Virus record (IMG/VR): IMGVR_UViG_2671180724_000008
Reading direction: 5' to 3' (one strand)
From: a virus
Taxonomy: Duplodnaviria > Heunggongvirae > Uroviricota > Caudoviricetes
Length of the DNA: 64,000 bases
Shown here piece after piece: positions 11,909 to 64,000 of this stretch (positions are counted from its first letter, which is position 1; the number at the start of each line of letters is the position of its first letter). The position numbers were made by a program, and so were the translations under genes. The notes beneath the pieces were generated by a model. The model had not been told where the DNA came from. It worked only from the letters and a program-made list of their open reading frames with translations, and made no database searches.

Positions 11909-11954
11909 AAACCTCTTTCCTTAGTGCCTTTTGTATGTTATTTGGCTATTATAA

Positions 11955-11972
11955 TAAGTAAGTGATTACTTA
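11955..11972. promoter_or_regulatory. TAAGTA-N6-TACTTA palindrome in divergent promoter region
   Basis: taagtaagtgattactta between the minus-strand helicase start and the plus-strand ParB-like gene. Confidence 0.5.
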
Positions 11973-11990
11973 GTGGATTGTAGCAATAAA

Positions 11991-13339: not shown

Positions 13340-14001
13340 GCAAATACATCATCAACGTATCGTTTCAGACACGCGTAAATAAAACCACGCGCACGTTGGA
13401 AATCGCTGAGTCGTTCGGGCTTGGCCTGGACGAAAAAGAGTGGACGCTTTACGACAATCTGGAGCTGGAAGTGAAGCAGGGCGATGTGGTGTACATCACC
13501 GGCCAATCCGGTTCCGGCAAATCCGTTGTGCTGCGCGAGTTGCAACGACAGATGAAGGATGAAGGGCTGTCTGTAGCCTCCATCGATGATTTTACCTTCG
13601 ATAATGAGGTTAACGTCATCGATCAGTTGGGCAAAACGACCAGTGATGCGCTTGGGTTGTTATCTATGGCTGGTCTGAACGATGCATATCTGTTTGTTCG
13701 CAAGCCTTCTGAAATGTCAGACGGCCAGAAATATCGTCTCAAGATTGCCAAACTGATTGAGTCAGGCGCTAAAGTGTGGGCTGCTGACGAGTTCGGCGCT
13801 GTTCTCGACCGTGTAACCGCTCAGGTTGTGGCGTCTAACCTCCAGCGTGCCGCTCGAAAGGTTGGTGCGACGGTAATGGTGGCGACGACTCACGAAGACC
13901 TGAAGAACGCGCTGCGCCCGGATATGCAGATCACCAAGCACTACAAAGAACGCGTGAAGGTGGAATATCACAATGGTAGTCACGATGAGGTCCATTCATG
14001 A
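13336..14001 (+). CDS. Small ABC-type/P-loop ATPase
   Basis: Walker A GQSGSGKS, signature-like SDGQKYRLKIA, Walker B VWAADEFG; ATGA overlap with upstream gene. Confidence 0.65.
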   Translation: MSKYIINVSFQTRVNKTTRTLEIAESFGLGLDEKEWTLYDNLELEVKQGDVVYITGQSGSGKSVVLRELQRQMKDEGLSVASIDDFTFDNEVNVIDQLGKTTSDALGLLSMAGLNDAYLFVRKPSEMSDGQKYRLKIAKLIESGAKVWAADEFGAVLDRVTAQVVASNLQRAARKVGATVMVATTHEDLKNALRPDMQITKHYKERVKVEYHNGSHDEVHS

Positions 14002-14888: not shown

Positions 14889-14897
14889 GGATTTGCC

Positions 14898-15164
14898 ATG
14901 ACGTTAACCGATAAACAAAAGGACATCATCAAAACGCTCAATCTCGGTTATGAGCGAGGTCATCTACTTGATCTGGACGAATTGCTTGAAGTTTTGCCGT
15001 ACAAGACAACCAAGCAAAGTATCCAGTTCTCAATTCGCGCTCTGATAAAAAAGGGGCTTGTGGAGAAAGGGCATACGCGCCAACGCAGTGACAATCGCTA
15101 TCACCGCCGAACTCTTGGGTTAACCACTTTAGGTCGAGCCAAAGCGAAGTTACTGGTGATGTAA
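14898..15164 (+). CDS. Small winged-helix DNA-binding protein
   Basis: 88 aa; ALIKKGLVEK-type wHTH segment; basic C-terminus. Confidence 0.5.
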   Translation: MTLTDKQKDIIKTLNLGYERGHLLDLDELLEVLPYKTTKQSIQFSIRALIKKGLVEKGHTRQRSDNRYHRRTLGLTTLGRAKAKLLVM

Positions 15165-15188
15165 TCGGTCTGGGAGCTTATTTAAAGA

Positions 15189-15243
15189 CCTGCTTCTGTA
15201 TATATAAATAATAAGTAACTTATTAAATATATACGGAAGCAGG
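15189..15243. repeat. 55-bp composite palindrome, copy 1 (17-bp GC-anchored arms cctgcttcYgtatatat around an AT-rich core containing aataagtaacttatt)
   Basis: Read directly; second copy at 47394-47448 in inverted orientation judged by flank match gtcttt(t)aaa. Confidence 0.85.
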
Positions 15244-15279
15244 CTTAATAAGACATGCCCAGACCTAATTAAACAACCC

Positions 15280-15322
15280 AGAAAACAAGTTGGTTAGAAA
15301 ATGCAGTAAACAAGTTGTTTTA
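15280..15322 (+). promoter_or_regulatory. Two operator motifs (agaaaacaagttggtta; gtaaacaagttgtttta) upstream of the terminase operon
   Basis: Members of the GAAAACAA..TTGTTT family. Confidence 0.5.
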
Positions 15323-15360
15323 GAGCGCATGGACGCGCTCTGTGTGTTTTAGAGGGATCT

Positions 15361-15993
15361 ATGACGGTCGAAAAAGACGAGGTAAAAACTCGCCTGACAC
15401 CAGCGGAGTGGGCCGAAGCTGAAGCCAAATGGACGTCAGGCGAATATACACTCTCAAAGCTGGAGGAAGAGTACGGCATTCGTCGTGAAACACTCTCCAG
15501 ACATTTCAAAAAGCGAGGATTAGAGAAAGGCGCGGACTCTGTTGGGAAGATGGTTCGTGAGTCTCTTAAATCTGACGCAGAGCTTCGCGCTAAAGCCCGT
15601 GCGGAAAAGATAGAAGAACGTCGTACACGTTATGACGGCTGGGCGTATGCGTTGGGGCAGATGGTGATGGTCGAAGTCACTACGGCCAAACGTGAGGGTA
15701 AGCCTTTAGGGGCGATTGAGGATTCTCTCAAGAGCTTACAGAGAGCCAGTAATACCCTTGCAAAATGCTTTGAAGTTTCGTCCAAAGCATTGGGCATGGA
15801 TCATGCGGAAAATGACGAGGAAGAAATTCCGAACCTGGTATTTGGTGAGCTTACGCCTTCCCAGGTGGCGAAATTACGTCAGGAAGACGACGAGCCTGAA
15901 ATCATCGATGACGAATTGCTTGAGACGTTGGAAGAAGAAGCTCTAAGCGAATTTGATGCGACAGATGATGGAAGTGAAGGGGAGGACGAATAA
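15361..15993 (+). CDS. Terminase small subunit (putative)
   Basis: Position directly upstream of large terminase; basic N-terminal half, highly acidic C-terminus. Confidence 0.6.
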   Translation: MTVEKDEVKTRLTPAEWAEAEAKWTSGEYTLSKLEEEYGIRRETLSRHFKKRGLEKGADSVGKMVRESLKSDAELRAKARAEKIEERRTRYDGWAYALGQMVMVEVTTAKREGKPLGAIEDSLKSLQRASNTLAKCFEVSSKALGMDHAENDEEEIPNLVFGELTPSQVAKLRQEDDEPEIIDDELLETLEEEALSEFDATDDGSEGEDE

Positions 15994-17249
15994 TGGCAAT
16001 CCCGTCCTCGCTCAGTCTTGTGCAACTGCATTCTGGACAGATGAAAGTCTTCCAGTCTCCGCATCGATTTAAAGTTGTTTGTGCTGGTCGACGCTGGGGA
16101 AAATCCCGGTTGTCGATCTCCACTATTATTCGTGCGGCGGCAAAGGAAAAAAAGCAAAGGGTCTGGTATGTCGCTCCTACTTACCAGATGGCTCGCCAGA
16201 TTTTGTGGGACGATCTACAGGAAGTTCTGCCTCGTAAGTGGGTTAGGAAAAAGAACGACACCACGATGACAATCGTGTTGAAGAACGGTTCGGAGATCGC
16301 CCTCAAAGGTGCTGATAAGCCTGACACTCTGCGCGGCGTAGCGTTGCATTTTGTAGTGCTTGATGAATTTCAGGATATGAAGGCTGACACCTGGTACAAG
16401 GTGTTACGACCTACTCTTTCATCGACACGCGGCGGTGCACTTATCATTGGTACGCCAAAAGGTTTCTCGGAATTTCACAAACTGTGGACTATAGGCCAGA
16501 ACGTAGAGCTGCAAAGAAAGGGACAGTGGAAGAGCTGGCAGTTTGTAACTGCCGATTCTCCGTTTGTGCCTACGGCGGAAATTGAAGCTGCTAAGAACGA
16601 TATGGACCCGAAATCGTTCGCTCAGGAGTACCTGGCGAGCTTTGAGAACATGTCCGGGCGCGTTTACTACCCGTTCGATCGTAACGTGCATGTAAAACCG
16701 CTTCAGTTCAACCCTCGGTTGCCTATATGGGTAGGGCAGGACTTCAACATTGACCCGATGTCTTCAGTAATTTTGCAACCTCAGCCAAATGGTGAGCTAT
16801 GGGCAATTGATGAATTGGTGCTCTTTTCCTCTAACACGGCAGAGGTTTGTGATGAGCTTGAGAGACGCTTCTGGCGCTGGAAATCACAGATAACGGTATT
16901 TCCAGATCCGGCAGGTGCTTATCGCCAACATGCTCGCGGGGAGTCTGACGTCGACATATTCAAAGAGAAGGGATTCTTACGTGTCGATTATTCGAAAAAG
17001 CACCCGCCAATTGCGGATCGTGTTAATGCTGTTAACCGAATGCTGATGACCGCATCTGGAGATATCCGGTTGTATATCGATCCGAAGTGCAAGCATTTGA
17101 TTGATTCACTGGAAAAAGTCATCTACAAGCCTGGAACACGAGATATGGATAAGACAGGTGGCATTGAGCATAGTGCAGACGCATTGGGCTATCCAGTACA
17201 TCGTAGGTATCCAGTCAAAAACCGTGTTATTCTTGGTGGTTCTCGATAG
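15993..17249 (+). CDS. Terminase large subunit
   Basis: Walker A CAGRRWGKS, Walker B VVLDEF, C-terminal nuclease-type acidic residues; ATGG overlap with TerS stop. Confidence 0.85.
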   Translation: MAIPSSLSLVQLHSGQMKVFQSPHRFKVVCAGRRWGKSRLSISTIIRAAAKEKKQRVWYVAPTYQMARQILWDDLQEVLPRKWVRKKNDTTMTIVLKNGSEIALKGADKPDTLRGVALHFVVLDEFQDMKADTWYKVLRPTLSSTRGGALIIGTPKGFSEFHKLWTIGQNVELQRKGQWKSWQFVTADSPFVPTAEIEAAKNDMDPKSFAQEYLASFENMSGRVYYPFDRNVHVKPLQFNPRLPIWVGQDFNIDPMSSVILQPQPNGELWAIDELVLFSSNTAEVCDELERRFWRWKSQITVFPDPAGAYRQHARGESDVDIFKEKGFLRVDYSKKHPPIADRVNAVNRMLMTASGDIRLYIDPKCKHLIDSLEKVIYKPGTRDMDKTGGIEHSADALGYPVHRRYPVKNRVILGGSR

Positions 17250-17275
17250 GTAAGTAATTATCTAAGGTTATTCAA

Positions 17276-18850
17276 ATGGAATTGAACGACAAACAAATTA
17301 AGGATCTGGTGGCGCGACGCCACCCGGAATACGAAAAGAAAAAAGAACATTGGGACTTCCTCGCCAGCACTTACGCTGGCGGGCGTGGTTGGTTTACAGA
17401 CAATATCTTTCGTTACTTTAAAGAGGGAGATCAGGAGTTTAAGGAGCGAGTTGAGCGTGCTTATCGCTTCAACCACACTCGTGAGGTGGTAAACCTCATC
17501 AACAAATATCTCTTTAAAGAAGACATTCATAGAAATATCGAAGAGGCACCAGAGCAGATCCGCAATTTCTGGAAACGTGCGACTCGCCAGAATGCCTCTA
17601 TTGACTCATTTATGGCCGCTATTGATTTGCAGTCGTCTATTTACGGTCGCATATGGGTTGTTGTCGATAGCACGATGAGTGGTGATGTTGAGTCAGTAGC
17701 TGACGAGAAAAAGAAAGATGCTCGCGCCTACGCCTACTGGATTTCACCTCAGCAAATGCTGGATGTGGCATGGGACGACGACGGGAATATGTTGTGGGCG
17801 TTAATTGTGGAAGTCGCTCGTGATGACGCAGATCCTTTTACTTCTACAGGTCAGGAATACCAACGTTATCGTCTGTGGACACAAAACGAGTGGTATCTGT
17901 TCCGTGAGGAAGTGAAGAAGGGCGCTGGTGGAGCAGGTCGCCGTCAGGCAAAAGTTATTTTAGAGGATAGCGGTGAGCATAATCTCGGCGTAGTTCCTGT
18001 GTTTCCTGTTGATTGTATTGGAGAAAGTGAATCACCGTATTTCAGCCCATCGTTGATCGATGATATCGCTTATCTTGATCGTGCGGTTGCAAACTATCTG
18101 TCAAACCTTGATGCCATTATTCAGGATCAGACATTTAGCCAGTTGGCTATACCGGTACAGTCGCTTTTACCTGGTGATGAAAACCACACTAAAGTGCTTG
18201 AAATGGGCACAAAGCGAGTCTTCACCTACGATTCTGAAGGTGGAAACCAGCCGTTTTATTTGTCACCAGACCCGAAACAAGCTCAGATGATCATCACTAC
18301 GATTAAGACGGTGATTAACGAAATCTACCATTCAGTTGGTGTCGCTGGTGAGCGAACGAAGCAGGACAACGCACAGGGAATTGATAACTCATCTGGTGCC
18401 GCAAAAATGTATGACTTCCAGCGTGTAAATAGCTTGCTTGTCACAAAAGCAGAGCGTCTGGAAAGGGCTGAACGCCAAATCATGCTACTGGTTGCGAAAT
18501 GGATGGGGGTAGATCTGGACGAAGACCACTCTTTAATTGCGTATCCAGAAAGTTTCGATATTCGTGGCCTTACAGATGAATTTTCTGTTGCCGAGAAACT
18601 GTCATTACTTCAGGCACCGGACTCTGTACGTCGTCACCAGATGGAAATGCTTATTGAGAAGATTTTCCCGAACATTACTGAGGCGATGAAAAAGGAATTT
18701 GATAAAGATCTCTTGAATTTTCCGCCAAAAAATGATCTAAATACCCTTGAAAATAAGTCAGTACTTACTTATGATCGTGGTGCAGCCCAAGAAAGCGGGC
18801 AAGATCAACCCCGAGGGAATGGGGACTCATCTACTCAAGAGAACGAGTGA
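17276..18850 (+). CDS. Portal protein
   Basis: 524 aa, immediately after terminase; size and position typical. Confidence 0.75.
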   Translation: MELNDKQIKDLVARRHPEYEKKKEHWDFLASTYAGGRGWFTDNIFRYFKEGDQEFKERVERAYRFNHTREVVNLINKYLFKEDIHRNIEEAPEQIRNFWKRATRQNASIDSFMAAIDLQSSIYGRIWVVVDSTMSGDVESVADEKKKDARAYAYWISPQQMLDVAWDDDGNMLWALIVEVARDDADPFTSTGQEYQRYRLWTQNEWYLFREEVKKGAGGAGRRQAKVILEDSGEHNLGVVPVFPVDCIGESESPYFSPSLIDDIAYLDRAVANYLSNLDAIIQDQTFSQLAIPVQSLLPGDENHTKVLEMGTKRVFTYDSEGGNQPFYLSPDPKQAQMIITTIKTVINEIYHSVGVAGERTKQDNAQGIDNSSGAAKMYDFQRVNSLLVTKAERLERAERQIMLLVAKWMGVDLDEDHSLIAYPESFDIRGLTDEFSVAEKLSLLQAPDSVRRHQMEMLIEKIFPNITEAMKKEFDKDLLNFPPKNDLNTLENKSVLTYDRGAAQESGQDQPRGNGDSSTQENE

Positions 18851-18871
18851 TAAGTAACAAAGGGAATTTTT

Positions 18872-19759
18872 ATGAAACTGTGGCAAATGCTTTTGGCCCG
18901 TCGTGGTCTGATGGATGTTGCTGAAGCGCATGAGCGTGGGGGCGCTGGCGGTGTAGCTGCTGATAATGAGCAGAGTACACAAGATCCTGACAAGCAGGGT
19001 GAACAAAAAGAGCAGCCGAAGGGTGATGACGAATACGCTGGCATGACTCATGAAGAGTTACTGGCCGAACTTCGCAAAACCAAGAAAGCTGGTGCTGAAC
19101 TGCTGAAAGAGAACATGAAGCGCAAAGAGAAAGAGCGCACATTGGCCGATCAGCTTGCTCAGTACGGTGAAATCGACCCGGCGCGTGCTCGCCAGCTTTT
19201 AGAAGCTGAACAGGCCGCAGAAAACGCACGTCGTGAGGCGGAGCAAGCTGAACTGGAGCGTCGTGGTGAGTTCGATGCTGTTAAAAAACAGATGATCGAA
19301 GCACACCAGGCAGAGCTGGCACAGCGTGACGAACGTTATGCAGCACTGGAAAGTGAAAACGCATCACTGAAATCTCAATTAGTCGAGATGACCGTGGGCG
19401 CTTCCTTCAGTAACTCTCTCTTCCTACGTGACAAAGTTCTGATGACTCCGGCAAAAGCCCGCGTGATCTACGGTTCTCATTTTGAAGTGGGTGAAGACGG
19501 TAGCGTAGTGGGTTATGACAAACCGGCAGGTCATAAAGAACGAGCTGTTCTGGTTGACGGTGAAGGTAAGCCGTTGCCGTTTGAATCCGCGATTGAACGC
19601 ATTGTGCGGGCAGATCCGGAAGCTGACGCATTGATGCGTAGCGAAGCCAAGCAGGGTGTAGGCTCACATTCCAAATCGACCTACACAATATCCCAACCGA
19701 AGAACAAGTCGACTATGGATAAGTTGGCCTCCGGTCTGGGGAAAATTGGACTTAAGTAA
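18872..19759 (+). CDS. Scaffolding protein
   Basis: Ala/Glu/Arg-rich coiled-coil protein between portal and capsid. Confidence 0.6.
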   Translation: MKLWQMLLARRGLMDVAEAHERGGAGGVAADNEQSTQDPDKQGEQKEQPKGDDEYAGMTHEELLAELRKTKKAGAELLKENMKRKEKERTLADQLAQYGEIDPARARQLLEAEQAAENARREAEQAELERRGEFDAVKKQMIEAHQAELAQRDERYAALESENASLKSQLVEMTVGASFSNSLFLRDKVLMTPAKARVIYGSHFEVGEDGSVVGYDKPAGHKERAVLVDGEGKPLPFESAIERIVRADPEADALMRSEAKQGVGSHSKSTYTISQPKNKSTMDKLASGLGKIGLK

Positions 19760-19784
19760 CATCTAAATCAAAGGGAATTGATAG

Positions 19785-20660
19785 ATGCCATTACTGCGTG
19801 AAGAAGCTGAAAAGCTGTCTAACAACGAACTTGAACAGGGCGTGATTGAAACCATCATCGATCGCGATGACCTGTTTGCCATCCTGCCTTTTATGAAAAT
19901 TACTTCAAAGGCATATCTGTACAACCGTGAAAAAACGCTGAGTGAAGCTACCTTCATCGACGTTAACGACACCATCCCGGAAGGTGCAGCAACCTTCGAA
20001 GAATGCGTTGCGAAACTGCGTATTCTGGCTGGTGACGTAGACGTTGATAAATTCCTGGCAACCACTATGGCCGACACCAATAACCAGTTGGCTATTCAGG
20101 TTCGTCAGAAAGTTAAAGGTCTGGCTCGTGCGTTCCGTCGCAATCTGATTTTGGGTGACTCCAGCACCAACAACAAAGCGTTTGACGGCATTCCACGCCT
20201 GATGCACGCAGATCAGAAGATCGATATCGCCGGTGCATCTATGACTTTCTCTATGTTCGACGAACTGGTCGATGCGGTGAAAGATCTTGGTGCTGACTGC
20301 ATCATGATGCGTTCAGAGCACCTTCGTGCTTACCGTGCGCTGCTGCGTACAGTAAACGTAGGTCCGTCTGAAATCATGATGGAGAACTTCGGTCGTCCGA
20401 TGCTGTGTCATAACGGCGTTCCGTTCATCATCAACGACTTCATCCCGACTGATTCTGGCAAAGCAAGCATCTACTGCTTGCATCTGTCAGAAGAGAACGG
20501 CGTTACTGGTCTGTATGGCGGCGATAACGCAGGTATCGTTGTTGAAAACATTGGTACTGTACAGAACAAAGACGCAGTACGTACCCGTGTGAAGTGGTAC
20601 TGCTCTCTGGCGAATAAGCACGATAAGGCTATCGCTGCACTGACCAATGTAAAAATTTAA
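19785..20660 (+). CDS. Major capsid protein
   Basis: 291 aa, follows scaffold; followed by a strong terminator. Confidence 0.7.
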   Translation: MPLLREEAEKLSNNELEQGVIETIIDRDDLFAILPFMKITSKAYLYNREKTLSEATFIDVNDTIPEGAATFEECVAKLRILAGDVDVDKFLATTMADTNNQLAIQVRQKVKGLARAFRRNLILGDSSTNNKAFDGIPRLMHADQKIDIAGASMTFSMFDELVDAVKDLGADCIMMRSEHLRAYRALLRTVNVGPSEIMMENFGRPMLCHNGVPFIINDFIPTDSGKASIYCLHLSEENGVTGLYGGDNAGIVVENIGTVQNKDAVRTRVKWYCSLANKHDKAIAALTNVKI

Positions 20661-20694
20661 TCAGTATAGTAGATAAGTAGTTATCTATGTTAAA

Positions 20695-55255: not shown

Positions 55256-55331
55256 TGATGGTGTAGCTCAGCGGTAGAGCAGTTGGCTGTTAACCAACTG
55301 GTCGGTGGTTCGAATCCACCCACCATCGCCA
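55256..55331 (+). tRNA. tRNA-Asn (anticodon GTT), phage-type
   Basis: Manual cloverleaf fold: acceptor GATGGTG/CACCATC, anticodon loop CTGTTAA, T-loop GGTTCGAATCC, encoded CCA; differs from E. coli tRNA-Asn. Confidence 0.85.
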
Positions 55332-55336
55332 ATTTA

Positions 55337-55423
55337 GGGGAGTTAGTCCGTAGAGGTAGCGGTGTAGACTGTAAATCTACTGTCATTGCGACTCGGGTGG
55401 TTCGACTCCATCACTCCCCACCA
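55337..55423 (+). tRNA. tRNA-Tyr (anticodon GTA) with long variable arm
   Basis: Acceptor GGGGAGT/ACTCCCC, anticodon loop CTGTAAA, T-loop GGTTCGACTCC, encoded CCA. Confidence 0.8.
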
Positions 55424-55427
55424 AATT

Positions 55428-55503
55428 GCCGGTTTAGCTCAGTTGGTAGAGCGCCTGCCTTGTAAGCAGGATGTCAGCGGTTCGTGTCCGTTAACCGGCA
55501 CCA
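55428..55503 (+). tRNA. tRNA-Thr (anticodon TGT)
   Basis: Acceptor GCCGGTT/AACCGGC, anticodon loop CTTGTAA, T-loop GGTTCGTGTCC, encoded CCA. Confidence 0.8.
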
Positions 55504-55507
55504 ACAT

Positions 55508-55595
55508 AATATTGAGAACATTGGCGTAACGGGGTCATATCCCAATCTATGAATAAATGTTACGTTGCCGCGTGACAACCAGTGTTCTCAACATT
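55508..55595. repeat. Nested inverted repeat immediately 3' of tRNA-Thr (aatattgagaacattgg / ccagtgttctcaacatt with inner cgtaac/gttacg)
   Basis: Read directly; candidate processing element or small structured RNA. Confidence 0.55.
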
Positions 55596-56170
55596 GTGGT
55601 GAATGCACAGGCTGATGTGCCGCAACTACAGTAGTGCGCGCTTTGCGGGGCTTGCTACAACCCTGTGTCGGAGATCAGCGCCGACCATCACAATTTGGCT
55701 CTCTTGCAACAGCATAACGCTGAAATATGTCCAACCTGGTGCGGCCTGTTCACCCGCCGTTAGCTCCACGAAACGGAGCGCACAACAGATAAGAGAACTT
55801 CCCATATGGGGCTTGGCTTAAATGCATCGAGTTCTCTTATCGCTGTGTCACAGACAAATTTCCGACAGCCCTGTTTATCATCGGACGCAACCTAAAAGGT
55901 CGAGGCAAAGCCAGGTAATAGCGGAGGGAGTGACACAGCACACAACAGGTAAGAGCATTTGTAGAGTTCGACTCTCTACCGTGGGCTTTTTCCCGCGATG
56001 CGAGCCATAAATGCTCTTTCCGTTGTGGTGGATTCGCAGACTGATGCGATAGCTTTCTTGGATGTTAGGGAAATGCGGCCGCAAATCTTCCCTTTCGCGA
56101 GCGGTGATCGTCCGTAGTCCTAATTGGCTGCACCGTATGCCGGAGATTCAGTACCGGCCACCACAACGGC

Positions 56171-56257
56171 CGGAGAGTAGGGAGCATGGTGCTCAAGCGG
56201 TCTTGAAAACCGTCCCATTGTGCAAACGATGATGGTTCGATTCCATTACTCTCCGCC
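56171..56257 (+). tRNA. tRNA-Ser (anticodon TGA) with long variable arm
   Basis: Acceptor GGAGAGT/ACTCTCC, anticodon loop CTTGAAA, T-loop GGTTCGATTCC, encoded CCA. Confidence 0.8.
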
Positions 56258-56260
56258 AGA

Positions 56261-56453: not shown

Positions 56454-57788
56454 TCATGCCAAATTATCCAGATTTCTTTTCTTTTTTTCAATTATATTTC
56501 TCGCGCCAGAAAAAATTTTACTCAAAATAATTGATTTGCTTGCTCTATTATTAAGATGTAACAACGCGCTATAAAATACATAGTTATCTATTTTACTATT
56601 TAAAGTATTCCCAAGCTTCCCGTTATATGTGCTATTAATAGTATTAAAATATACATGTTCAGGACCTATATTACAAATACCCCTATCAACTCGCTTTAAA
56701 TAATGTTTAACTAAAGAAATAGCATCTTCCTTATCATTAATAACATAAAGTCCTGAGCGTTTACCTAGCTTGCTGTCCGAGAATAATTTATAACCAACAA
56801 GTTCATTTAACGTATTATCCACTTTTGTCAACTCTTTGTTGGCAATCTCCAAATAATACTCAATCTCTTTCTCCATATTACTTATTAAAGAGTTAAATTC
56901 TGCTCGTAACAAATCACCACCAGGTGATTTATAACTCCATAAAATTGAATTGGTAATACGTACTACGTCAGATACTTCTGGTTTCTCTGAATAGTTTTTG
57001 TATCTAGTGCAAATAATGCTGTGCTTTATATATTCTCTAACTAATGATCGATAATCCCTTTCGAAAAGGTTTTTGACATCTAGTCTTCCATTGCTTGTTG
57101 TTATTAAGGTGGTGTTTAAAACTGGGTCGCCTTCAAAAAAATTATATTTATTTAGTAATCGTTTTAGCTTGTGTGAATTATGTGATGTTTCGCCATAATA
57201 ATTTATCCCAAAAATAGCAATTATTAGCATAACATCAGGAGTGATGAAATGTCGTAATTGCTCGGCATAAACTTTTTTATCTTCGATTTTCGAAGATGGA
57301 GAGTAAAAACCTTTGTCTATATATTCTAATATTGAAACAATATTACTAACATAACGTATAAAAACTTGATTCATTACAACGGAATCATAAACCTGATGCA
57401 AATAATCTACTCTCAAGTTGTTTTTTATTTTTTCCCCTGTACTAGATGATAACTCTTCTTTTACCTGCCCAAGTAGCTTTTCGTGGTGCTCCAGCAATGT
57501 TTTAAACCATTGTTCAAATGATGATTTTCTTGCCTCAGTTAATGAATCTGATGTTATCTGGACAGCTTTCATAGCTGCTTTCGCACTTTTCTTTGCTTCA
57601 TAAGCGTTCCATGCTGAAGCACAAAAAGCTGCCGCCGTGATGCAACTGGTAAAAATAGAAATCCTATCTGCAACATTCAAGCTCCAGAACCAATCAGACG
57701 ATGAAATCAAAACCACAGATATTACGGGAACAATGAAAATCAAAACAGGCATGTATGTACTCGCTCTAATAGTTATTAGTCGAGGCAA
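56454..57788 (-). CDS. Low-GC 444-aa membrane-anchored protein of unknown function (candidate abortive-infection or defence cargo)
   Basis: Two N-terminal transmembrane segments then a large Lys/Asn/Tyr/Ile-rich soluble domain; strongly AT-rich codon usage unlike the rest of the element; own promoter and terminator. Confidence 0.6.
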   Translation of the reverse strand: MPRLITIRASTYMPVLIFIVPVISVVLISSSDWFWSLNVADRISIFTSCITAAAFCASAWNAYEAKKSAKAAMKAVQITSDSLTEARKSSFEQWFKTLLEHHEKLLGQVKEELSSSTGEKIKNNLRVDYLHQVYDSVVMNQVFIRYVSNIVSILEYIDKGFYSPSSKIEDKKVYAEQLRHFITPDVMLIIAIFGINYYGETSHNSHKLKRLLNKYNFFEGDPVLNTTLITTSNGRLDVKNLFERDYRSLVREYIKHSIICTRYKNYSEKPEVSDVVRITNSILWSYKSPGGDLLRAEFNSLISNMEKEIEYYLEIANKELTKVDNTLNELVGYKLFSDSKLGKRSGLYVINDKEDAISLVKHYLKRVDRGICNIGPEHVYFNTINSTYNGKLGNTLNSKIDNYVFYSALLHLNNRASKSIILSKIFSGARNIIEKKKRNLDNLA

Positions 57789-58386: not shown

Positions 58387-59490
58387 ATGAAAAATAGCTT
58401 TGACAGAGCACGCGCTGCGGAGAACACCTCAAAAGAGGCGATTGAGTATCTCGAAAGAGCATCTCAAATGCAGGCCGTTATGATCTCGCAGGTTAGCAAT
58501 GACATGAGATTCTCGGACGCATTCATGTTATTCACTCGCTTATCTCTGCTTATAACCAGACGTCGGCCAGAGATCGCTGTTCATTGTATTTTGATACATG
58601 TTTTGCCGCACATTGCTGATGTAAAAGTAAGTGACATTAATAGGTTCATGGTGAACCAACTGGTAAACCCACTAATACTGGATGGCAAAATTGTTATGGG
58701 CCGCCGCGTTTTCTCTCTGATGAAGCAGTTCCTTAGCTGGTGCGCCTTCCAGGGGATGATAGACGTGTCACCGTTAAACGATATGTCACTAAACAAAGTT
58801 GCCGGTGGCGCAAAGCCCACACCTCGCGAGCGGAAGCTGACCGACGCAGAGGTATGGGTGTTCTGGAATATATGGGACTACTTCAATGTGTGCGCTGGTA
58901 CAAAATGGGCGGCCAGGCTGTGTCTTGTATCAGCAAGACGACCTGACGAAGTACTGCGGGCTAAAAAAAGTGAGTTCAATCTTAAGCGTGGGGTTTGGAA
59001 TCAAGGCAAGAGAAACAAGTCAGCACGTGAGCATTCGCTGCCTTTAAGCACATTAATGCGCACATGCATTGAAGAGTTGTTCGAATACGGTAAAGACAGC
59101 CAGTGGCTCGTGCCTTCGAATAAAAAAATCGGGAAAGACCTTCCTATGTCTAAAGTGGCAATAGCCCAGGCATTACGTCGTATTCTGGAACGACCAGAAC
59201 TGATGGAGCTTGAGCCATTTACACCCCGAGATTTGCGCCGTACTGCGCGTAGTTACTTCCCAGCATTAGGCATAAGCCAGGAGGTATCACGCAAAATCAT
59301 GAACCACAGTCTTGAGGGGATAGATCGGGTCTACGACCGGCACGATTATATGGACGAGATGCGAGACGCCTTAGAAAGTTTCTCGACGTACATCGCATCA
59401 ATCGTAGAGCAACCGGATTTAGACGAAATTGACCACAAATTCAAGGGAGATCGTCTATCAACAGAGCTTATTCGTGTAAATTTTTCATAG
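58387..59490 (+). CDS. Tyrosine integrase (site-specific recombinase)
   Basis: C-terminal catalytic pattern: Arg in RRPDEV, HSLEGIDRVYDRHDY region with His/Arg and terminal Tyr; 367 aa. Confidence 0.85.
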   Translation: MKNSFDRARAAENTSKEAIEYLERASQMQAVMISQVSNDMRFSDAFMLFTRLSLLITRRRPEIAVHCILIHVLPHIADVKVSDINRFMVNQLVNPLILDGKIVMGRRVFSLMKQFLSWCAFQGMIDVSPLNDMSLNKVAGGAKPTPRERKLTDAEVWVFWNIWDYFNVCAGTKWAARLCLVSARRPDEVLRAKKSEFNLKRGVWNQGKRNKSAREHSLPLSTLMRTCIEELFEYGKDSQWLVPSNKKIGKDLPMSKVAIAQALRRILERPELMELEPFTPRDLRRTARSYFPALGISQEVSRKIMNHSLEGIDRVYDRHDYMDEMRDALESFSTYIASIVEQPDLDEIDHKFKGDRLSTELIRVNFS

Positions 59491-59871
59491 AGACTTTATG
59501 GCCTCAACAACCTTTTGTGATGCGCCTTTCTCTTTACCGAATCGCTCGTTATATGCAGCAAGAACCTGTTTTTCGTCCTCGTTAAGAGGAGCGGTGCCTT
59601 CTTTGTATAAAAATGCTGCGAGTTCAGGTTGGCGTTCTTCCAGCACCATCATCATAAGACGACTTGGCTCAATACCCAGCGCCAGCGCCAGCGGACGAAC
59701 CTTATCGATAGGCAAAGGAATTTTGCCACTTTTAATTAAAGAAAGGTTGTTGGCATTTTTATAACCAATAAGTCTGGCTATTTGGGCCTGACTCATAGGT
59801 GAGGATTCAATCAGCCCTGCGATAAAAGCAGCATAGCGACTTTCTATAAATTCAATCTTGTTGTCAGACAT
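59485..59871 (-). CDS. XRE-family helix-turn-helix transcriptional regulator (CI/Cro-like repressor)
   Basis: HTH segment SQAQIARLIGYKNANNLSLIKSG; convergent with integrase, 6-nt overlap. Confidence 0.75.
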   Translation of the reverse strand: MSDNKIEFIESRYAAFIAGLIESSPMSQAQIARLIGYKNANNLSLIKSGKIPLPIDKVRPLALALGIEPSRLMMMVLEERQPELAAFLYKEGTAPLNEDEKQVLAAYNERFGKEKGASQKVVEAIKSL

Positions 59872-60122
59872 TGTTACAACCTTTGCGCGTTTAATTCTCT
59901 CTGGTAAGTGCTTACCGATATTACATCAAAGGTTAGGGTTGTAAAGCTATTATCATTTTTTTCGGCAGGCACTTGTAAGACCGAGCAAAGGTCCATGCAT
60001 GGAGAAAAACTAGCCCAAAATAGGTAAGAAAATTAACTTGCATCTGATATAGATGTATTCAGTATTGATACAAATTTTAGTAGTATTCCTTACCATAGTA
60101 TAAGTTAGAATGGATTGATTGA

Positions 60123-60335
60123 ATGAAAACCACTATTTCCAGCCTAATCGCTCTTGAGATCGGACACGTACAGAAATTAGCTGATGAGTGTGTAGCTGAC
60201 ATCCTCACCGATCTACCGAATGAGCAGATTCAGGTTGGTGTGAATGACACAACTGGCTTTATATTCGAACTTAACAACAAACGCTTCACGCTTCTCAATA
60301 CCGGCTCCGGGTCTTTAGCCGTCAGAATCTGTTAA
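60123..60335 (+). CDS. Hypothetical small protein
   Basis: 70-aa ORF divergent from the repressor gene. Confidence 0.4.
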   Translation: MKTTISSLIALEIGHVQKLADECVADILTDLPNEQIQVGVNDTTGFIFELNNKRFTLLNTGSGSLAVRIC

Positions 60336-60433
60336 CCCCTCTTCTCCCTGCGCGAATGGCTTAGTTCCCTGTTCGCGCAGTGCTACATTAAACACACTAG
60401 TAAATAATTTGTTTTCATAACAAAGGATTAGCC

Positions 60434-62542
60434 ATGTCTAAAAAACGTTCCATCAAAGAGGTTCAGGACTTCCGTGACAGTGTAAAACGAGTAGTCGCTC
60501 TCCTTTCAGGTAAAAACATCCCTGTTGCAGAACGAGGGGACGACGCTTATGTACGCTATAACGATGATGGAGAGCCAATTCTCGTAAACATCCCATCAAT
60601 CCCGGATAACGCAACACCGGCATTGATGAATGCTGTGCGCGGATTTCTCGATCATGAGGTTGCTCACATTTTGTTTACCGATATTCGTGTGTCCAACAAA
60701 ATGAGAGAAAAAGGACGCGTTCCTTCCTGGTCGCTATGGAATGCCTTAGAAGACGTGTTCATCGAGCGAAAAATGGGGCAGGTCTTTAACGGAACAAGAC
60801 GTAATCTGATGGCAACTCAGCGCCTTATAATCGAAAAAGTCTTTAAACCAAAGGCTTCAGAGGCTATTGCTTATTGTGGCAAAGATCAGCGCGCGCTTTT
60901 TCTAAACTTCTTTCTCTGTCCGGTTGTAAGAGCCTGGGATGGCCAAGCACCGTTCGTAGATTTCATGGATGAATACTGGCCTGTCATTGAGAAACCAATT
61001 TCATTATTAAAAGAACATGGTATCGATGTGGCCGTGCGTAACATGTCTTGCACCGAGGATTGTGTAAAGGTGGCTGCGACCATAGCTAAGATCCTCAAAG
61101 ACACTGAAAGTGAAAGCAAAGGTAAGGAGTCAGCTCCGGGAAAAACTTCCGATCCTTCAGACGCTGACCAGACGGATGCCTCTGGAGAAAACAATGAAGA
61201 CAACGAAGATCATGAGACACCCTCAGCGTTAGATAATCACAAATCTATCGAATCAGAATCACACAGTAAGCACAAACATGATAATAACGACAGTGATGAT
61301 TCAGATAATTCTGAATCATCAGAAACAATATTCGATGATACAGAAAATGATAAAGAGGTATCAGATTCTGATGCTTCTGATAACGCGGCGTCAGAATCAT
61401 TAACCGCTGGCCACGAAAAAAGAAAAACGACAGAAGACGGCTCTTCAGATATTCCAACTCCGTCAAAAATGAGTCTGGAAGAGGCTTTAGAGGAGCTGGA
61501 TAGCATAGAAGATGAAGTCGGAGGCATGACAGAAGATGCTCTATCCGAAACGATTAAAAGCGAGTTAACAGAAAGCTCGAAAAGCGAATACAGGCCATAC
61601 AATCGCTCATACGACTTCATCGGCTCGATTGATCAGGCAGAAGCCCATATCAAACGGCTTATTAAAACATTCTCCGATATTGATTTAGGAGGATATCCAA
61701 TCAGCCGCTATCGCATCGTTCCTGAAGGCAACCAGCTCTTCGACAAATATATTGAAAAGCATCTTTCGTCAGGTGTTTCGTCGACGCTGGCAAAAGACCT
61801 GGAGCGAGCAATAGCAAGCAGAAACAGAGTTCAGTTTATACCGGGCCAGCGTCGGGGGCGCATTCATGGTTCTAGTATCTACAGATTAGCAATGAATGAT
61901 GATCGCGTGTTTCGTAAAAAAGAAGAATCTAAAGCCGTTAACGCCTGTGTTCAACAAGTGATTGATTTATCAGGTTCAATGAGTGGCGAAACGATAAAAC
62001 TAGCTCTTGCAAGTGCATATACCATCGCCGATGCTCTTGATCGAATAAATGTTCCCAACATTATCACCGGCTTCACTACATTTGGCAGTCATCTGGCAGC
62101 GATAGAACTTAAGGCTATCAAGTATGAGTTCTCTCGCTTTGAATCTTTAATGCTACCTATCATCAAAAATTGGAATGAAAAAGCAAATTCTCGCGAAGTT
62201 CGCTCACGTATGGGGTGCGTAGGCTACACATTCCCACTTCTTAATAACGTGGATGGTGAAAGCATAGCCAGCCTTGCATCGTTATTTTCCGGTCGCATGG
62301 AGGACAGGAAGATCATGCTTGTTCTGAGCGATGGCGAGCCGCTGGCTGTTGGGAGAGGTTTTGACGCTCATTTGCGTTCGGTTGCGAAGCAAATTGAAAC
62401 GCAGACTGACATTGATTTGATGGCAATTGGCATCATGACTGACGCACCGGAGAGATTTTACGCAAATCATGCCCTGGTAACGAGCGTTGATAGTCTTGGT
62501 TCATCTGTAGTTACTGAACTATCTCGTATCATTTTGAAGTGA
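60434..62542 (+). CDS. von Willebrand factor A (vWA) domain protein with acidic Ser/Asp-rich linker (CobT-like)
   Basis: C-terminal MIDAS motif DLSGSMSGE; long acidic low-complexity linker around residues 230-330; 702 aa. Confidence 0.7.
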   Translation: MSKKRSIKEVQDFRDSVKRVVALLSGKNIPVAERGDDAYVRYNDDGEPILVNIPSIPDNATPALMNAVRGFLDHEVAHILFTDIRVSNKMREKGRVPSWSLWNALEDVFIERKMGQVFNGTRRNLMATQRLIIEKVFKPKASEAIAYCGKDQRALFLNFFLCPVVRAWDGQAPFVDFMDEYWPVIEKPISLLKEHGIDVAVRNMSCTEDCVKVAATIAKILKDTESESKGKESAPGKTSDPSDADQTDASGENNEDNEDHETPSALDNHKSIESESHSKHKHDNNDSDDSDNSESSETIFDDTENDKEVSDSDASDNAASESLTAGHEKRKTTEDGSSDIPTPSKMSLEEALEELDSIEDEVGGMTEDALSETIKSELTESSKSEYRPYNRSYDFIGSIDQAEAHIKRLIKTFSDIDLGGYPISRYRIVPEGNQLFDKYIEKHLSSGVSSTLAKDLERAIASRNRVQFIPGQRRGRIHGSSIYRLAMNDDRVFRKKEESKAVNACVQQVIDLSGSMSGETIKLALASAYTIADALDRINVPNIITGFTTFGSHLAAIELKAIKYEFSRFESLMLPIIKNWNEKANSREVRSRMGCVGYTFPLLNNVDGESIASLASLFSGRMEDRKIMLVLSDGEPLAVGRGFDAHLRSVAKQIETQTDIDLMAIGIMTDAPERFYANHALVTSVDSLGSSVVTELSRIILK

Positions 62543-62637
62543 TTAAAACAGCCTTAACGATAAGTAACTACTTATGATAGTTAATGATATATTTATATAA
62601 GAAGTTGAACGCTCATTAGAGAACAAAGGAAAAACGC

Positions 62638-63873
62638 ATGACTACTACTGCACTGCAAAATGAAAAAAATCCTTCTGATTACCTTGTTTGCAAGTGGTGC
62701 GGAAAATCATTTCACTATTTTAAGTCCCATGTAGCCTATGGTAATTGCGAGGGCATTCCTGAGTCGGTAAAAGATGCCGATCCTGACACCGTACTGAAAA
62801 TGTACACAACGCAGTTTCCAGATGAACCAACGCTATCGAAAAAGGCACTTGATGCAATTCAAGCTAAACGTGCCGAGCAAAAAAGCGAAATGGCCAAATC
62901 TTCTGGTGTGACCAGTAGCCCAGGCTACATAGGCACAGTTGAGTACAAGACAGATCTGGTCGCAGCTCACGAACTGCTAGACGTAACGGTGGAAGAACTC
63001 GGAACAAAACGTGGGACGCCGCTCATGGTTAGCGTCAACGTCAATACGCCGTTTCCAGAGTTCGTTCCTGAAGTGAAGAAGGGCTACGTATATGGCGACT
63101 TCGAACTGATCAAAGACATTTTCATGATGCTTGAACTTGGCATACCAGGCTATTTGTGGGGACATGCAGGAACAGGCAAATCGTCATTGCCTACACAGCT
63201 ATGTGCTTTGCTCAATCGTCCGTTGATCCGTGCCCAACATACAGCATCAATGGAAGAAGCTCATGTTACGGGTCAAATTCTGGCGCGTGATGGCTCTACG
63301 TATTTCGAGCCAGGCTTGCTTGCGCTCGCAATGAAGCATGGCTGGGTTTACCTCGCGGATGAATACGACTTTGCGTTTCCACAAATTCTTGGCGTGTATC
63401 AGCCAGTGCTGGAAGGTGAAGCGTTGGTCATCAAAGAGGCGACACCAGAATGGCGTCGCATTACTCCGCATAAACGGTTTGCTTTTATTGGCACTGGCAA
63501 CACGAACGGATCTGGTGATGAAACCGGCTTGTACCAGGGTACAAACATCCAGAACGCCGCGAACTTTTCGCGTTTTGGCATCGTTTCGAATGTGAAATAC
63601 ATGAGCAAAGAGGCAGAGATCAACATGTTGATAAATGCCGGCATTGTGGATGAGTACGCTGAAAAGATGGTTAAGTTTGCCGGTATCGTTCGCGATGGTT
63701 ACGAAGAACACAATATCAGCCAACCGATTGGGCCTCGTGAGCTTTTGTTGTCGGCCAAGATTGGAATGATGCGAGGCGACTTTGTGACAGGTATTGAGCG
63801 TTCTTTCATTAACAAACTCCCTTCAGCTTCTGCACAAGCGGCTCGTGAAGTTGTTCAAAAAATATTTGGTTGA
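62638..63873 (+). CDS. AAA+ ATPase (MoxR/CobS-like)
   Basis: Walker A GHAGTGKSS, Walker B VYLADEYD; N-terminal CxxC...C segment; directly downstream of the vWA gene. Confidence 0.75.
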   Translation: MTTTALQNEKNPSDYLVCKWCGKSFHYFKSHVAYGNCEGIPESVKDADPDTVLKMYTTQFPDEPTLSKKALDAIQAKRAEQKSEMAKSSGVTSSPGYIGTVEYKTDLVAAHELLDVTVEELGTKRGTPLMVSVNVNTPFPEFVPEVKKGYVYGDFELIKDIFMMLELGIPGYLWGHAGTGKSSLPTQLCALLNRPLIRAQHTASMEEAHVTGQILARDGSTYFEPGLLALAMKHGWVYLADEYDFAFPQILGVYQPVLEGEALVIKEATPEWRRITPHKRFAFIGTGNTNGSGDETGLYQGTNIQNAANFSRFGIVSNVKYMSKEAEINMLINAGIVDEYAEKMVKFAGIVRDGYEEHNISQPIGPRELLLSAKIGMMRGDFVTGIERSFINKLPSASAQAAREVVQKIFG

Positions 63874-63882
63874 TCGTGCGTA

Positions 63883-64000
63883 AAGGATGTTTCGGCTCTC
63901 TTATCGCTGCTTCTGAAACTGGTAAGGCTTGTCTGGTGTGTCCAGACAAGCCCGATTGTCACCAATCAGCAAAAGAAGTTGCGATTTCGATGCACGGGAA
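63883..64000 (+). CDS. Partial Cys-rich ORF running off the window (GTG start, uncertain)
   Basis: Open frame with C..C...C..C pattern to the last base; too short to classify. Confidence 0.25.

Follow-up and report, generated by a model that had tools for sequence, protein, structure and literature searches.

A CobT/CobS-like gene pair heading a phage-plasmid replication operon is probably not a cobalt chelatase and carries a metallopeptidase-like head

The DNA analysed here, called the window below, is a 64,000-nt part of a 110-kb element, an SSU5/pHCM2-type phage-plasmid of E. coli. Two neighbouring genes of the window encode a CobT-like protein of 702 aa and a CobS-like ATPase of 411 aa, with 96 nt between them, and both open reading frames lie exactly where the first-pass annotation of this DNA had drawn them. 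The features of the locus are the following (coordinates, strand, description and basis).

58387-59490, + strand: integrase, upstream of the pair.
59485..59871, - strand: divergent HTH regulator, putative prophage repressor (PHROG 8 at 7.5e-12; weak HTH_19 match).
60123..60335, + strand: 70-aa ORF, first of the same-strand gene string (PHROG 2627, function not known).
60434..62542, + strand: CobT-like adaptor, 702 aa (ORF; Pfam CobT and CobT_C; PHROG 1576 at 4e-299).
60434..61093, + strand: N-terminal domain, residues 1-220, predicted gluzincin-like fold.
60653..60667, + strand: H74-E-V-A-H78 (HExxH) motif (conservation among relatives).
60740..60766, + strand: N103-A-L-E106-D107-V-F-I-E111, second conserved helix, candidate third metal ligand (conservation; model helix 99-117).
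61094..61588, + strand: acidic, Ser-rich, low-complexity tether, residues 221-385 (composition).
61907..62536, + strand: vWA domain, residues 492-701, with MIDAS D511-x-S513-x-S515, T548/T549 and D633 (Pfam CobT_C; 9uka_G alignment).
62638..63873, + strand: CobS-like MoxR-class AAA+ ATPase, 411 aa (ORF; AAA_5; PHROG 249 at 2.8e-106).
62689..62730, + strand: C18-x2-C21-x4-H26-x4-H31, zinc-finger-like, in the N-terminal extension (conservation; model).
63160..63183, + strand: Walker A, G175-HAGTGKS-182 (motif in alignments).
63358..63363, + strand: Walker B, D241-E242 (invariant in alignments of relatives; pairs with DE of solved CobS).
63876..64000, + strand: start of an unannotated 67-aa ORF that runs off the window, between the ATPase gene and dnaE (translation; L001 19878-20081).

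The pair belongs to a same-strand string that leads from the repressor region through both genes into dnaE, SSB, exonuclease and RecA. The start of dnaE lies ~180 nt after the ATPase gene, ~54 nt past the window end (L001 20056). The intervening 67-aa ORF shows a weak match to the N-terminus of a ~180-aa protein that phiK7B1 and a Rhizobium phage encode between their CobS-like and DnaE genes, and a distant relative (L249) has a small ORF at the position matching the 70-aa one. With the HTH regulator and the integrase close by, it was fair to describe the pair as adjacent to the lysogeny switch, but dnaE is the more telling neighbour. The operon link to DnaE was absent from the first-pass annotation, as was the anti-restriction homologue discussed below. 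Also, the locus lies near a stretch of low GC content that contains an AbiC-like ORF.

In the 702-aa protein, Pfam CobT (PF06213) covers residues 9-294 (1.3e-27) and CobT_C/vWA (PF11775) residues 492-701 (3.4e-82), while solved CobT (PDB 9uka_G) aligns over residues 440-697 (9.6e-17). The protein does close with a vWA domain bearing an intact MIDAS, as had been claimed: D511-L-S-G-S515 is present, the alignment pairs the motif with DnSGS, GFTT and SDG of 9uka_G, and D511, S513, S515, D633 and G634 are invariant among relatives. The acidic linker described earlier is there too, but its length of ~100 residues was an underestimate, since the stretch spans 165 residues (51 D/E, 31%; 44 S/T, 27%; 14 K/R). 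Among close relatives this tether ranges from 161 to 254 aa, and bona fide CobT and plasmid homologues also carry comparable acidic linkers.

Judged from sequence and a structure model, the N-terminal part of this adaptor looks like a protease head of the metallopeptidase kind, a trait that did not figure in the first-pass annotation. HExxH plus the downstream N..ED..IE pattern is retained in 148 of 150 relatives, taken as representatives of 50% clusters (H74, E75 and H78 99-100%; N103 96%; E106 100%; D107 99%; E111 100%). Among distinct copies from diverse viral loci, 54 of 56 have HExxH, the other two being cut by contig ends. In the model, helices 62-81 and 99-117 carry HExxH and the downstream Glu respectively, the arrangement by which zincins are recognized; the modelled domain is gluzincin-like, and its structural likeness to proteases is only moderate. 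By contrast, HExxH was found in none of the four bona fide CobT checked (Rhizobium, Cereibacter, Pandoraea, Sphingomonas), where the position reads DSMALR, DAFALR and similar. Pseudomonas phage phiK7B1 keeps the gene with SEISK replacing HExxH and both histidines lost, so catalysis is dispensable at least in that phage.

The 411-aa protein matches Pfam AAA_5 over residues 173-293 (1.7e-15) and solved CobS (PDB 9ujv) at 3.8e-26, and its Walker A and B motifs, already recognized as being of the MoxR/CobS type, are accompanied by R312 and R367, invariant across relatives. In front of this core, an N-terminal extension of ~100 aa was not found by alignment in cellular CobS or in Vcrx089, the homologous ATPase of IncC plasmids. 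The CxxC...C segment reported there was right about C18 and C21 but not about C37, which is not conserved, whereas H26 and H31 are: in 98 distinct N-termini, C18 is present in 99%, C21 in 74%, H26 in 100% and H31 in 86%, and in a second alignment of relatives C18 is invariant, with C21 and H31 at 90% or more. An AF2 model, made along the lines proposed in the first-pass annotation, has an overall pLDDT of 86 and shows in the zinc-finger-like region a beta-hairpin (16-25) and a helix (28-33) at pLDDT 83-94. It superposes best on CbbQ and NorQ (Foldseek; CbbQ2 6l1q, TMt 0.86; NorQ 9qh8, TMt 0.87; E 1e-14), and the matches include NorQ-NorD vWA complexes. An AAA_5/CbbQ-type fold, intact catalytic motifs and a neighbouring vWA gene with a complete MIDAS place the protein in the MoxR class.

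Gene order was surveyed in 80 diverse loci at 41-92% identity, 72 of which have room to show the neighbours. This co-occurrence analysis across phage genomes, also suggested earlier, gave CobT-like, CobS-like and DnaE in this order on one strand in 72/72 loci with room, and the same order occurs in phiK7B1, the Rhizobium phage and an Ectothiorhodospira prophage. Throughout this wide phage lineage, the two genes are a constant, core part of the replication operon and not island cargo. Common descent within one broad lineage might account for such a shared order without any functional coupling. In the Cyrano lysogen, the CobT-like (7.8), CobS-like (6.7) and DnaE (10.1) genes are expressed at about the background (~9.6). 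The repressor stands at 95.8; this gene, CYRAN_45, is the orthologue of the HTH regulator of the window, is annotated as 'putative repressor' and is 10-fold over background, and CYRAN_46, orthologue of the 70-aa ORF, is weakly expressed.

We tentatively favour, as a good possibility, that the pair is a remodeller of the MoxR/vWA type to which a metallopeptidase is tethered. It would act early in lytic growth, its likeliest opponent being a host protein dangerous to phage DNA. As a gene family the pair is not new, and the functional reading is inferred: the analysis shows domain identities, motif conservation, operon position, lack of CobN and low expression in a lysogen, and complex formation, proteolysis and the target are proposals. 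By analogy with CobS, NorQ and CbbQ, the ATPase should assemble into a hexameric ring, carrying its extra zinc-finger-like N-terminal module. The C-terminal vWA/MIDAS of the adaptor would dock on the ring and latch an acidic residue of the target protein, and the 165-residue tether would join it to the gluzincin-like head with its intact HExxH...E. The ring could then spend ATP on pulling or unfolding the captured host protein, while the tethered head would cut it. Since the genes stand at the head of the string into dnaE and are not expressed while the element persists as a plasmid-prophage, their action would fall early in lytic development or upon entry into a new host. The target class may be host proteins that threaten, or compete for, incoming or replicating phage DNA, with type I restriction enzymes as the leading candidate by analogy with Vcrx089.

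This analogy has an experimental side in the plasmids. Across 99% of the AAA core, Vcrx089 and the ATPase of the window are ~30% identical (E 3e-21). Together with Vcrx090 it confers evasion of type I restriction-modification (PMC7498323), and deletion of vcrx089-090 raises restriction 424-fold by EcoBI and 906-fold by EcoKI (PMC11602122), a phenotype assigned to these two genes rather than to the vWA protein or any phage copy. The operon region of Vcrx089 also encodes an HExxH-linker-vWA protein (HEAAH, NVLEDCRIE, DMSSS) of the same architecture as the 702-aa protein. In the same sense, ArdC shows that type I systems can be evaded by means of a metalloprotease domain (PMC7213743). However, the score of the SSU5-type ATPase against Vcrx089 (100 bits) does not exceed that against true CobS (100-116 bits), and the tree is star-like, with the phage and Vcrx089 clades as deep, roughly equidistant branches, so that function is not transferable by homology. 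In addition, tblastn found no Vcrx090/DUF3150 homologue in the window or in related phage loci (best Vcrx090 E 0.79).

The strongest alternative, possible although somewhat unlikely in our view, is a replication-accessory remodeller or maturation factor that assembles, activates or metal-loads the phage replisome. In one version the PHP domain of the neighbouring DnaE would receive its metal from the pair, much as NO reductase receives iron from NorQ-NorD; in another the pair would strip host replisome components and let the phage polymerase take over. The dnaE order (72/72 loci with room, phiK7B1, the Rhizobium phage and L249) is consistent with it, and so is the low expression in step with DnaE in the lysogen. 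In cyanophage P-SSM7 the pair adjoins the sliding clamp (gp45) and clamp-loader (gp44) genes, and in IncC plasmids family members neighbour ssb-bet-exo. Besides, MoxR/vWA pairs are commonly chaperones for cofactor insertion or activation, and no structures match the ATPase model better than NorQ and CbbQ. Yet the pair is also found in elements without DnaE (T4-like cyanophages, ICP2-like phages, IncC plasmids), so a DnaE-specific role cannot be general, and a chaperone would not need the conserved, catalytic-looking protease motif.

A more improbable alternative is a remodeller whose HExxH head binds metal or serves as a scaffold without proteolysis, perhaps in self-processing or regulation of the adaptor, and whose target lies outside DNA defence and replication, for example in the virion or in takeover of host physiology. 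The moderate likeness to proteases and the phiK7B1 gene, retained after losing both histidines, point this way. There is also a precedent in CLCA proteins, which combine an HExxH zincin and a vWA domain in one polypeptide and cleave themselves; CLCAs are assigned as zincins in one report (PMC3650047). Against this, the near-universal H, E, H and downstream acidic residues argue for a selected catalytic or metal site, and the genes always lie amid DNA-metabolism genes.

A genuine cobaltochelatase motor that hijacks host CobN to raise cobalamin synthesis is hardly credible. Pairs of this kind are indeed widely annotated as CobT/CobS, as the first-pass annotation said, and also as 'porphyrin biosynthesis'; the homology extends over the AAA+ and vWA domains, and viral cobST have been published as hypothetical cobalamin boosters of archaeal viruses and cyanophages (PMC8651126). 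However, the NCBIfam equivalog scores fall 6- to 11-fold under the cut-offs (CobT 67.6 bits vs 759, TIGR01651; CobS 87.2 vs 558.6, TIGR01650). The annotation of the whole 110-kb element, to which the search was confined, contains neither CobN nor any cob gene, which agrees with the earlier doubt about a chelatase role without CobN and leaves no complete chelatase partner set nearby. The ribonucleotide reductase of the element is class Ia and B12-independent, and E. coli has only a salvage pathway, de novo B12 needing heterologous cobN/S/T (PMC6249242). Taken together, these points make a chelatase role implausible. The HExxH head, lacking in the four real CobT checked, and the silence of the genes in the lysogen add to this. 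Members of the family also occur widely on elements whose hosts are enterobacteria, Vibrio cholerae and Acinetobacter, which are not known to have a CobN-dependent aerobic route. On these sequence comparisons, the pair probably belongs to a mobile-element branch of the CobT/CobS superfamily and is not a cobalt chelatase, and the label is probably wrong on function in view of the motor-like look and the lead position in a DNA-replication operon.

Equally far-fetched is a prophage-borne anti-phage defence of the vWA-MoxR conflict-system type guarding the lysogen, as hinted at by the first-pass annotation: AAA+/vWA pairs do occur in predicted NTP-dependent conflict systems (Kaur et al. 2020, PMC7159879), and the locus is near the immunity region and the low-GC patch with the AbiC-like ORF, but PADLOC yields only a 16-bit DrmE match (residues 340-536, beginning in the acidic linker), the pair is at background expression in the lysogen, it holds one fixed position as core genes throughout a wide lineage of phages instead of being variable cargo, and the annotation of window and element has no effector or VMAP-like third gene, the neighbours being replication genes. 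The anti-restriction phenotype of the homologous plasmid ATPase suggests counter-defence rather than defence.

The remodeller reading can be widened, at a strength that we regard as unlikely, to one ancient counter-defence or host-takeover machine common to phages, phage-plasmids, conjugative plasmids and ICEs, in which a CobS-like ring and a MIDAS adaptor would capture a host DNA-targeting complex, with a type I restriction enzyme as leading target, and cut it via the tethered zinc protease. If this were true, the viral cobST 'auxiliary metabolic genes' of cyanophage and virome surveys would not be B12 genes, and the CobST of the cellular cobaltochelatase would have branched off from this machine and lost its protease site.

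Compared with known systems, the pair resembles CobS-CobT of the aerobic CobNST enzyme in having two adjacent genes, a MoxR-class AAA+ ATPase (9ujv) and a partner in which an acidic linker joins a helical N-domain (Pfam CobT) to a C-terminal vWA/MIDAS (9uka_G). It differs in gene order, phage T then S against S then T in four bacterial chelatase loci, in the HExxH kept by its N-domain, and in the N-terminal extension with the zinc-finger-like motif. NorQ-NorD and CbbQ-CbbO are the systems that the ATPase model fits best (TM 0.83-0.87, target-normalised) and, by analogy, give the expected principle of an AAA+ hexamer with a vWA/MIDAS adaptor engaging the target. Their adaptors have no HExxH head, unlike the phage adaptor, and these systems act on metabolic enzymes whose genes lie close by (NO reductase, Rubisco); no such enzyme is encoded beside the phage pair. 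The vWA-MoxR-VMAP systems, reportedly described by Kaur et al. in 2020 as host-encoded three-gene systems with effector-bearing VMAP proteins, share the AAA+ MoxR and vWA core, whereas the phage pair is a core phage gene set without the third effector gene and without a real PADLOC match. CLCA proteins, compared by architecture alone, likewise unite an HExxH zincin and a vWA/MIDAS in one chain, but they are eukaryotic or secreted and have no AAA+ partner. Plasmid R388, too, is a mobile element, and its ArdC contains a zinc-metalloprotease domain and is required by the recipient cell against type I hsdRMS (PMC7213743); ArdC works as one protein, has an ssDNA-binding domain and lacks an AAA+ or vWA partner, and the likeness is one of description, with no sequence relationship claimed. 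Finally, in Vcrx089-090 (hde operon of IncC plasmids and SXT/R391), Vcrx089 has no counterpart of the N-terminal extension, and ssb-bet-exo-DUF3150 separates the vWA gene from the ATPase gene, which are adjacent in the phage. Nevertheless, both systems have a homologous CobS-like ATPase and an HExxH-linker-vWA gene, and the plasmid one is likewise borne by a mobile element, lies amid ssDNA and recombination genes, and is active on entering a new host, as may hold for the phage pair.

Both open reading frames proposed by the first-pass annotation were confirmed, with 702 and 411 aa, and we consider it well supported that they encode a mobile-element form of the CobS/CobT AAA+/vWA machine. They lie among the following genes of the window:

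55257-56258, four tRNA genes (Asn-GTT, Tyr-GTA, Thr-TGT, Ser-TGA), upstream of a low-GC patch
56454-57788, minus strand, 443-aa ORF in this 36% GC patch, between the tRNA cluster and the glutaredoxin gene
58387-59490, plus strand, tyrosine integrase, kept although the prophage is plasmid-form
59485-59871, minus strand, HTH regulator, convergent with the integrase gene
60434-62542, plus strand, CobT-like protein, ORF of 702 aa
62638-63873, plus strand, CobS-like ATPase, ORF of 411 aa
63876-64000 and on to ~64079 (19878-20081 in L001, a related annotated locus running past the window end), unannotated 67-aa ORF with a GTG start, containing GKACLVCPDKPDC, between the ATPase gene and dnaE

In Pfam, the 702-aa protein matches CobT over residues 9-294 (1.3e-27) and CobT_C/vWA over residues 492-701 (3.4e-82), and the 411-aa protein matches AAA_5 over residues 173-293 (1.7e-15). 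The former belongs to phrog_1576 (4e-299), of unassigned function in PHROGs, and the latter to phrog_249 ('porphyrin biosynthesis', 2.8e-106). The MIDAS, Walker A and Walker B motifs read earlier from the sequence were all confirmed: DLSGS (511-515) aligns with solved CobT 9uka_G (9.6e-17), and GHAGTGKS (175-182) and DE (241-242) align with solved CobS 9ujv (3.8e-26). The acidic linker is also present, but it spans 165 aa (residues 221-385; 31% D/E, 27% S/T) and not the ~100 aa first estimated; close relatives have linkers of 161 to 254 aa. An initial homologue search with the 702-aa protein gave close relatives only among the matches listed. The idea that this tether is a DNA mimic like Ocr or ArdA was not adopted because bona fide CobT carries a similar acidic linker.

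The window region shares 99.3% identity with E. coli plasmids, p009_B (NZ_CP048306) among them, and 97% with the phage-plasmid Cyrano; Salmonella phage SSU5 is a more distant relative, and the element is accordingly a phage-plasmid of the SSU5/pHCM2 type. In annotated records that continue beyond the window end, dnaE (Pol III alpha) begins ~180 nt after the ATPase gene and is followed, in order, by genes for a UvsY-like mediator, a gp32-type SSB, a 5'-3' exonuclease and RecA, while helicase, primase and ligase genes are found upstream. The pair is directly preceded by a 70-aa ORF, the divergent HTH regulator and the integrase. In a scan for promoters and terminators, 59400-64000 gave no more sites than shuffled sequence did, and operon boundaries are therefore drawn from gene order only. 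The 3' ends of the integrase and regulator genes overlap by 6 nt, and the integrase-regulator-CobT arrangement recurs in an Ectothiorhodospira contig. The 67-aa ORF overlaps the dnaE start, and its N-terminus is weakly similar to a ~180-aa protein at the same position in phiK7B1 and a Rhizobium phage.

With the window protein as lead, only near-identical SSU5-like loci were obtained, and a diverse set was recovered with the Rhizobium phage orthologue as lead. It comprises 80 viral loci, most from genomes of ~105-118 kb, whose ATPases are 41-92% identical to that orthologue. The order CobT-like, CobS-like, DnaE on one strand was found in 72/72 loci with room for it, the remaining 8 being contig ends, and the median gaps were 137 nt and 1.5 kb, in that order. 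The same order occurs in Pseudomonas phage phiK7B1, Rhizobium phage RHph_N1_15 and the Ectothiorhodospira contig, the last of these also having an integrase and small ORFs divergently upstream, just as the window does; the neighbours of the pair in cyanophage P-SSM7 are the gp45 clamp and the gp44 clamp loader. Therefore, the pair belongs to the fixed core of the early/replication gene string and is not variable cargo, and its membership in a lytic/early replication operon is well supported. In published RNA-seq of a Cyrano lysogen, the CobT-like and CobS-like genes stand at 7.8 and 6.7 and DnaE at 10.1, with a local background of ~9.6 and a repressor value of 95.8 (PMC9928086). Both genes are off in the plasmid-prophage state, which argues against a lysogen-protecting defence system and against a metabolic moron. 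The NTP-dependent conflict (defence) system suggested in the first-pass annotation was thus not borne out, PADLOC having returned only a 16-bit DrmE match that begins in the acidic linker and was rejected as compositional.

The 443-aa ORF has a sub-threshold match to the putative abortive-infection family putAbiC (PF16872, 2.9e-4) and matches PHROG 18168. In the same variable stretch Cyrano carries other genes: CYRAN_41, which is upstream of the glutaredoxin gene, and CYRAN_43, which lies between that gene and the integrase and is expressed in the lysogen 723-fold over background. This low-GC stretch looks like a variable moron/defence hotspot. Outside the window, p009_B carries a host-like metG (methionyl-tRNA synthetase) and apbC (L093, 44359-47650). 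Unusually long RecA genes are present in relatives (16375-17188 in L249, the Ectothiorhodospira contig, and 29159-31498 in L002, Cyrano), one of them with Pfam intein-splicing matches, and these sequences suggest that RecA may be intein-interrupted in this phage lineage.

A cobalt chelatase role was considered implausible from the beginning, and the searches agree. Scores against the NCBIfam equivalogs are far below the cut-offs, with 67.6 bits vs 759 for the CobT-like protein and 87.2 bits vs 558.6 for the CobS-like one. Neither CobN nor any other cob gene is annotated elsewhere on the complete 110-kb element, whose ribonucleotide reductase is the B12-independent class Ia NrdAB. E. coli has the salvage pathway only, and engineered de novo synthesis needed heterologous cobN, cobS and cobT (PMC6249242). 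It has been proposed that viral cobST hijacks the host CobN (PMC8651126); with no CobN annotated on the element and a salvage-only host, there is nothing here for such a mechanism to act on. That the pair is not a chelatase in this host is therefore well supported. The Cyrano orthologues (17231-20670) are labelled 'dimethylbenzimidazole phosphoribosyltransferase' and 'cobalamin synthetase', apparently through a confusion of names with the unrelated CobT and CobS of Salmonella nomenclature, from the salvage (nucleotide-loop) pathway. Naming of this type is a propagating mis-annotation. The four bona fide cobS-cobT loci inspected (L011, L012, L250, L251) have the order S then T, whereas the phage pair has the reverse; three of the four adjoin genes for a BolA-family and a J-domain protein, and not cobN.

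The N-terminal domain of the 702-aa protein (N-domain, residues 1-220, of putative gluzincin-like fold) contains H74-E-V-A-H78 followed by N103-x-x-E106-D107-x-x-I-E111. An exhaustive search with residues 1-235 against 1.84 billion representatives gave 1148 clusters at E<=1e-3. HExxH occurs within the N-terminal 300 residues in 148 of the best 150 of these clusters, one of the two exceptions being a fragment, and in an alignment of 129 full-length members H74, E75, H78, E106, D107 and E111 are conserved at 99-100%. Of 56 distinct copies from diverse viral contigs, 54 carry the motif; contig ends truncate the remaining two. HExxH is absent from bona fide CobT in all four cobS-cobT loci compared (replicons of Rhizobium, Cereibacter, Pandoraea and Sphingomonas, with CobS 76-88% identical to solved CobS); its position is taken by DSMALR, DAFALR or similar, while the rest of the domain aligns. 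The motif is kept in a cyanophage homologue annotated as 'peptidase', in an ICP2-like vibriophage homologue and in those of an IncC plasmid, an Azotobacter plasmid and a Pseudomonas megaplasmid, and among the mobile-element homologues compared it is lost only in Pseudomonas phage phiK7B1, which has SEISK. Thus, a conserved metallopeptidase-like head present here and lacking in cellular CobST is well supported.

Comparison of this head with known proteins gave little. Foldseek of the N-domain model against the PDB returned nothing below E=2, and a weak selecase match was not counted as evidence. A profile of five N-domains matched PDB sequences at chance level only (AcrIIA26 and hnRNP M); the similarity of the N..ED..IE helix (window 60740-60766, residues 103-111) to the anti-CRISPR AcrIIA26 (9zq6_B, E 0.11) is weak and probably due to chance. 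In Pfam at E up to 10, the isolated N-domain matched CobT only, and the ATPase N-extension and the pre-vWA segment matched nothing. When distant N-domains served as the profile for another homologue search, only 13 proteins, mostly fragments, were found, and our literature search found nothing joining CobT with HExxH, zincin or MoxR.

The best superpositions of the ATPase model (pLDDT 86) are with CbbQ2 (6l1q) and NorQ, including NorQ-NorD vWA complexes (E ~1e-14, TM 0.83-0.87 normalised to target); the protein is thus a motor of the MoxR/CbbQ/NorQ type, a kind always working through a vWA adaptor. It differs from cellular CobS and from plasmid Vcrx089 by an N-terminal extension of ~100 residues. 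Residues 11-85 of the extension are confidently modelled, with C18/C21 on a beta-hairpin and H26/H31 around a short helix, a predicted zinc-finger-like arrangement. Of the CxxC...C segment reported before, C18 and C21 are conserved and the third cysteine is not; H26 and H31 are conserved too. The presence of this zinc-finger-like extension here, and its lack in cellular CobST, is well supported.

The AAA core matched 2276 plasmid records by tblastn, 1015 of them conjugative, with IncC plasmids and Pseudomonas megaplasmids included. Sets of CobS-like ATPase, DUF3150 and HExxH-vWA genes are found in conjugative plasmids at:

L008 (IncC plasmid), 8902-16895
L010 (conjugative plasmid), 7896-12074
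L009 (conjugative plasmid), 7824-12607

The IncC order is ATPase (Vcrx089), 302-aa protein, ssb, bet, exo, DUF3150 and VWA protein, so that vcrx090-ssb-bet-exo splits the set, whereas nothing separates the three genes in the Azotobacter plasmid. The plasmid clade may thus have a third subunit of its own in DUF3150. Roy et al. showed that vcrx089-090 allow a type I R-M system of the recipient to be evaded (PMC7498323), and in an independent study restriction of pKAZ3 without these genes rose 424-fold by EcoBI and 906-fold by EcoKI (PMC11602122); the system is listed in AntiDefenseFinder. The TnSeq of the first study compared Cas+ and cas-deleted recipients (PMC7498323). As we read it, both carried the R-M system, so genes needed only for anti-restriction could not show up. 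Our literature search found no mechanistic follow-up paper on Vcrx089. Pairwise BLAST puts the window ATPase at equal distance from all three comparison groups, with 100-116 bits for true CobS, 100 bits for Vcrx089 and 117 bits for the Azotobacter homologue. A crude NJ tree is star-like, cellular CobS being a single clade amid at least five deep mobile-element clades; function is therefore not transferable by homology alone. Local tblastn found no homologue of Vcrx090 or DUF3150 in the phage loci.

Anti-restriction is the leading candidate role, although a tentative one, and a part in replisome maturation or takeover comes close behind as a slightly more doubtful reading. The pair would act as NorQD, CbbQO and CobST do, with a ring, a MIDAS adaptor and a target; the tethered head would add proteolysis of the captured target, which may be a host protein interfering with phage DNA. 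ArdC, in which a metalloprotease domain underlies type I R-M evasion, constitutes a precedent (PMC7213743).

The gene family has long been known and is widely annotated, the novelty being the functional reading and the use of HExxH as a criterion. Hundreds of clinical enterobacterial phage-plasmids have the pair annotated under cobalamin or porphyrin biosynthesis, and cyanophage and virome surveys count it as an 'auxiliary metabolic gene'. Should it be a protease-armed AAA+/vWA remodeller for DNA entry or replication, those metabolic inferences would be wrong, and there would be a testable mechanism for a widespread, conserved early function of large temperate phages, IncC/SXT resistance elements and marine cyanophages. 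The pair could represent a novel kind of device for anti-restriction or host takeover. The presence or absence of HExxH also provides a simple sequence criterion dividing mobile-element proteins from true CobT. The IncC VWA protein shares the architecture of the window protein, with HEAAH, NVLEDCRIE, a low-complexity linker and DMSSS.
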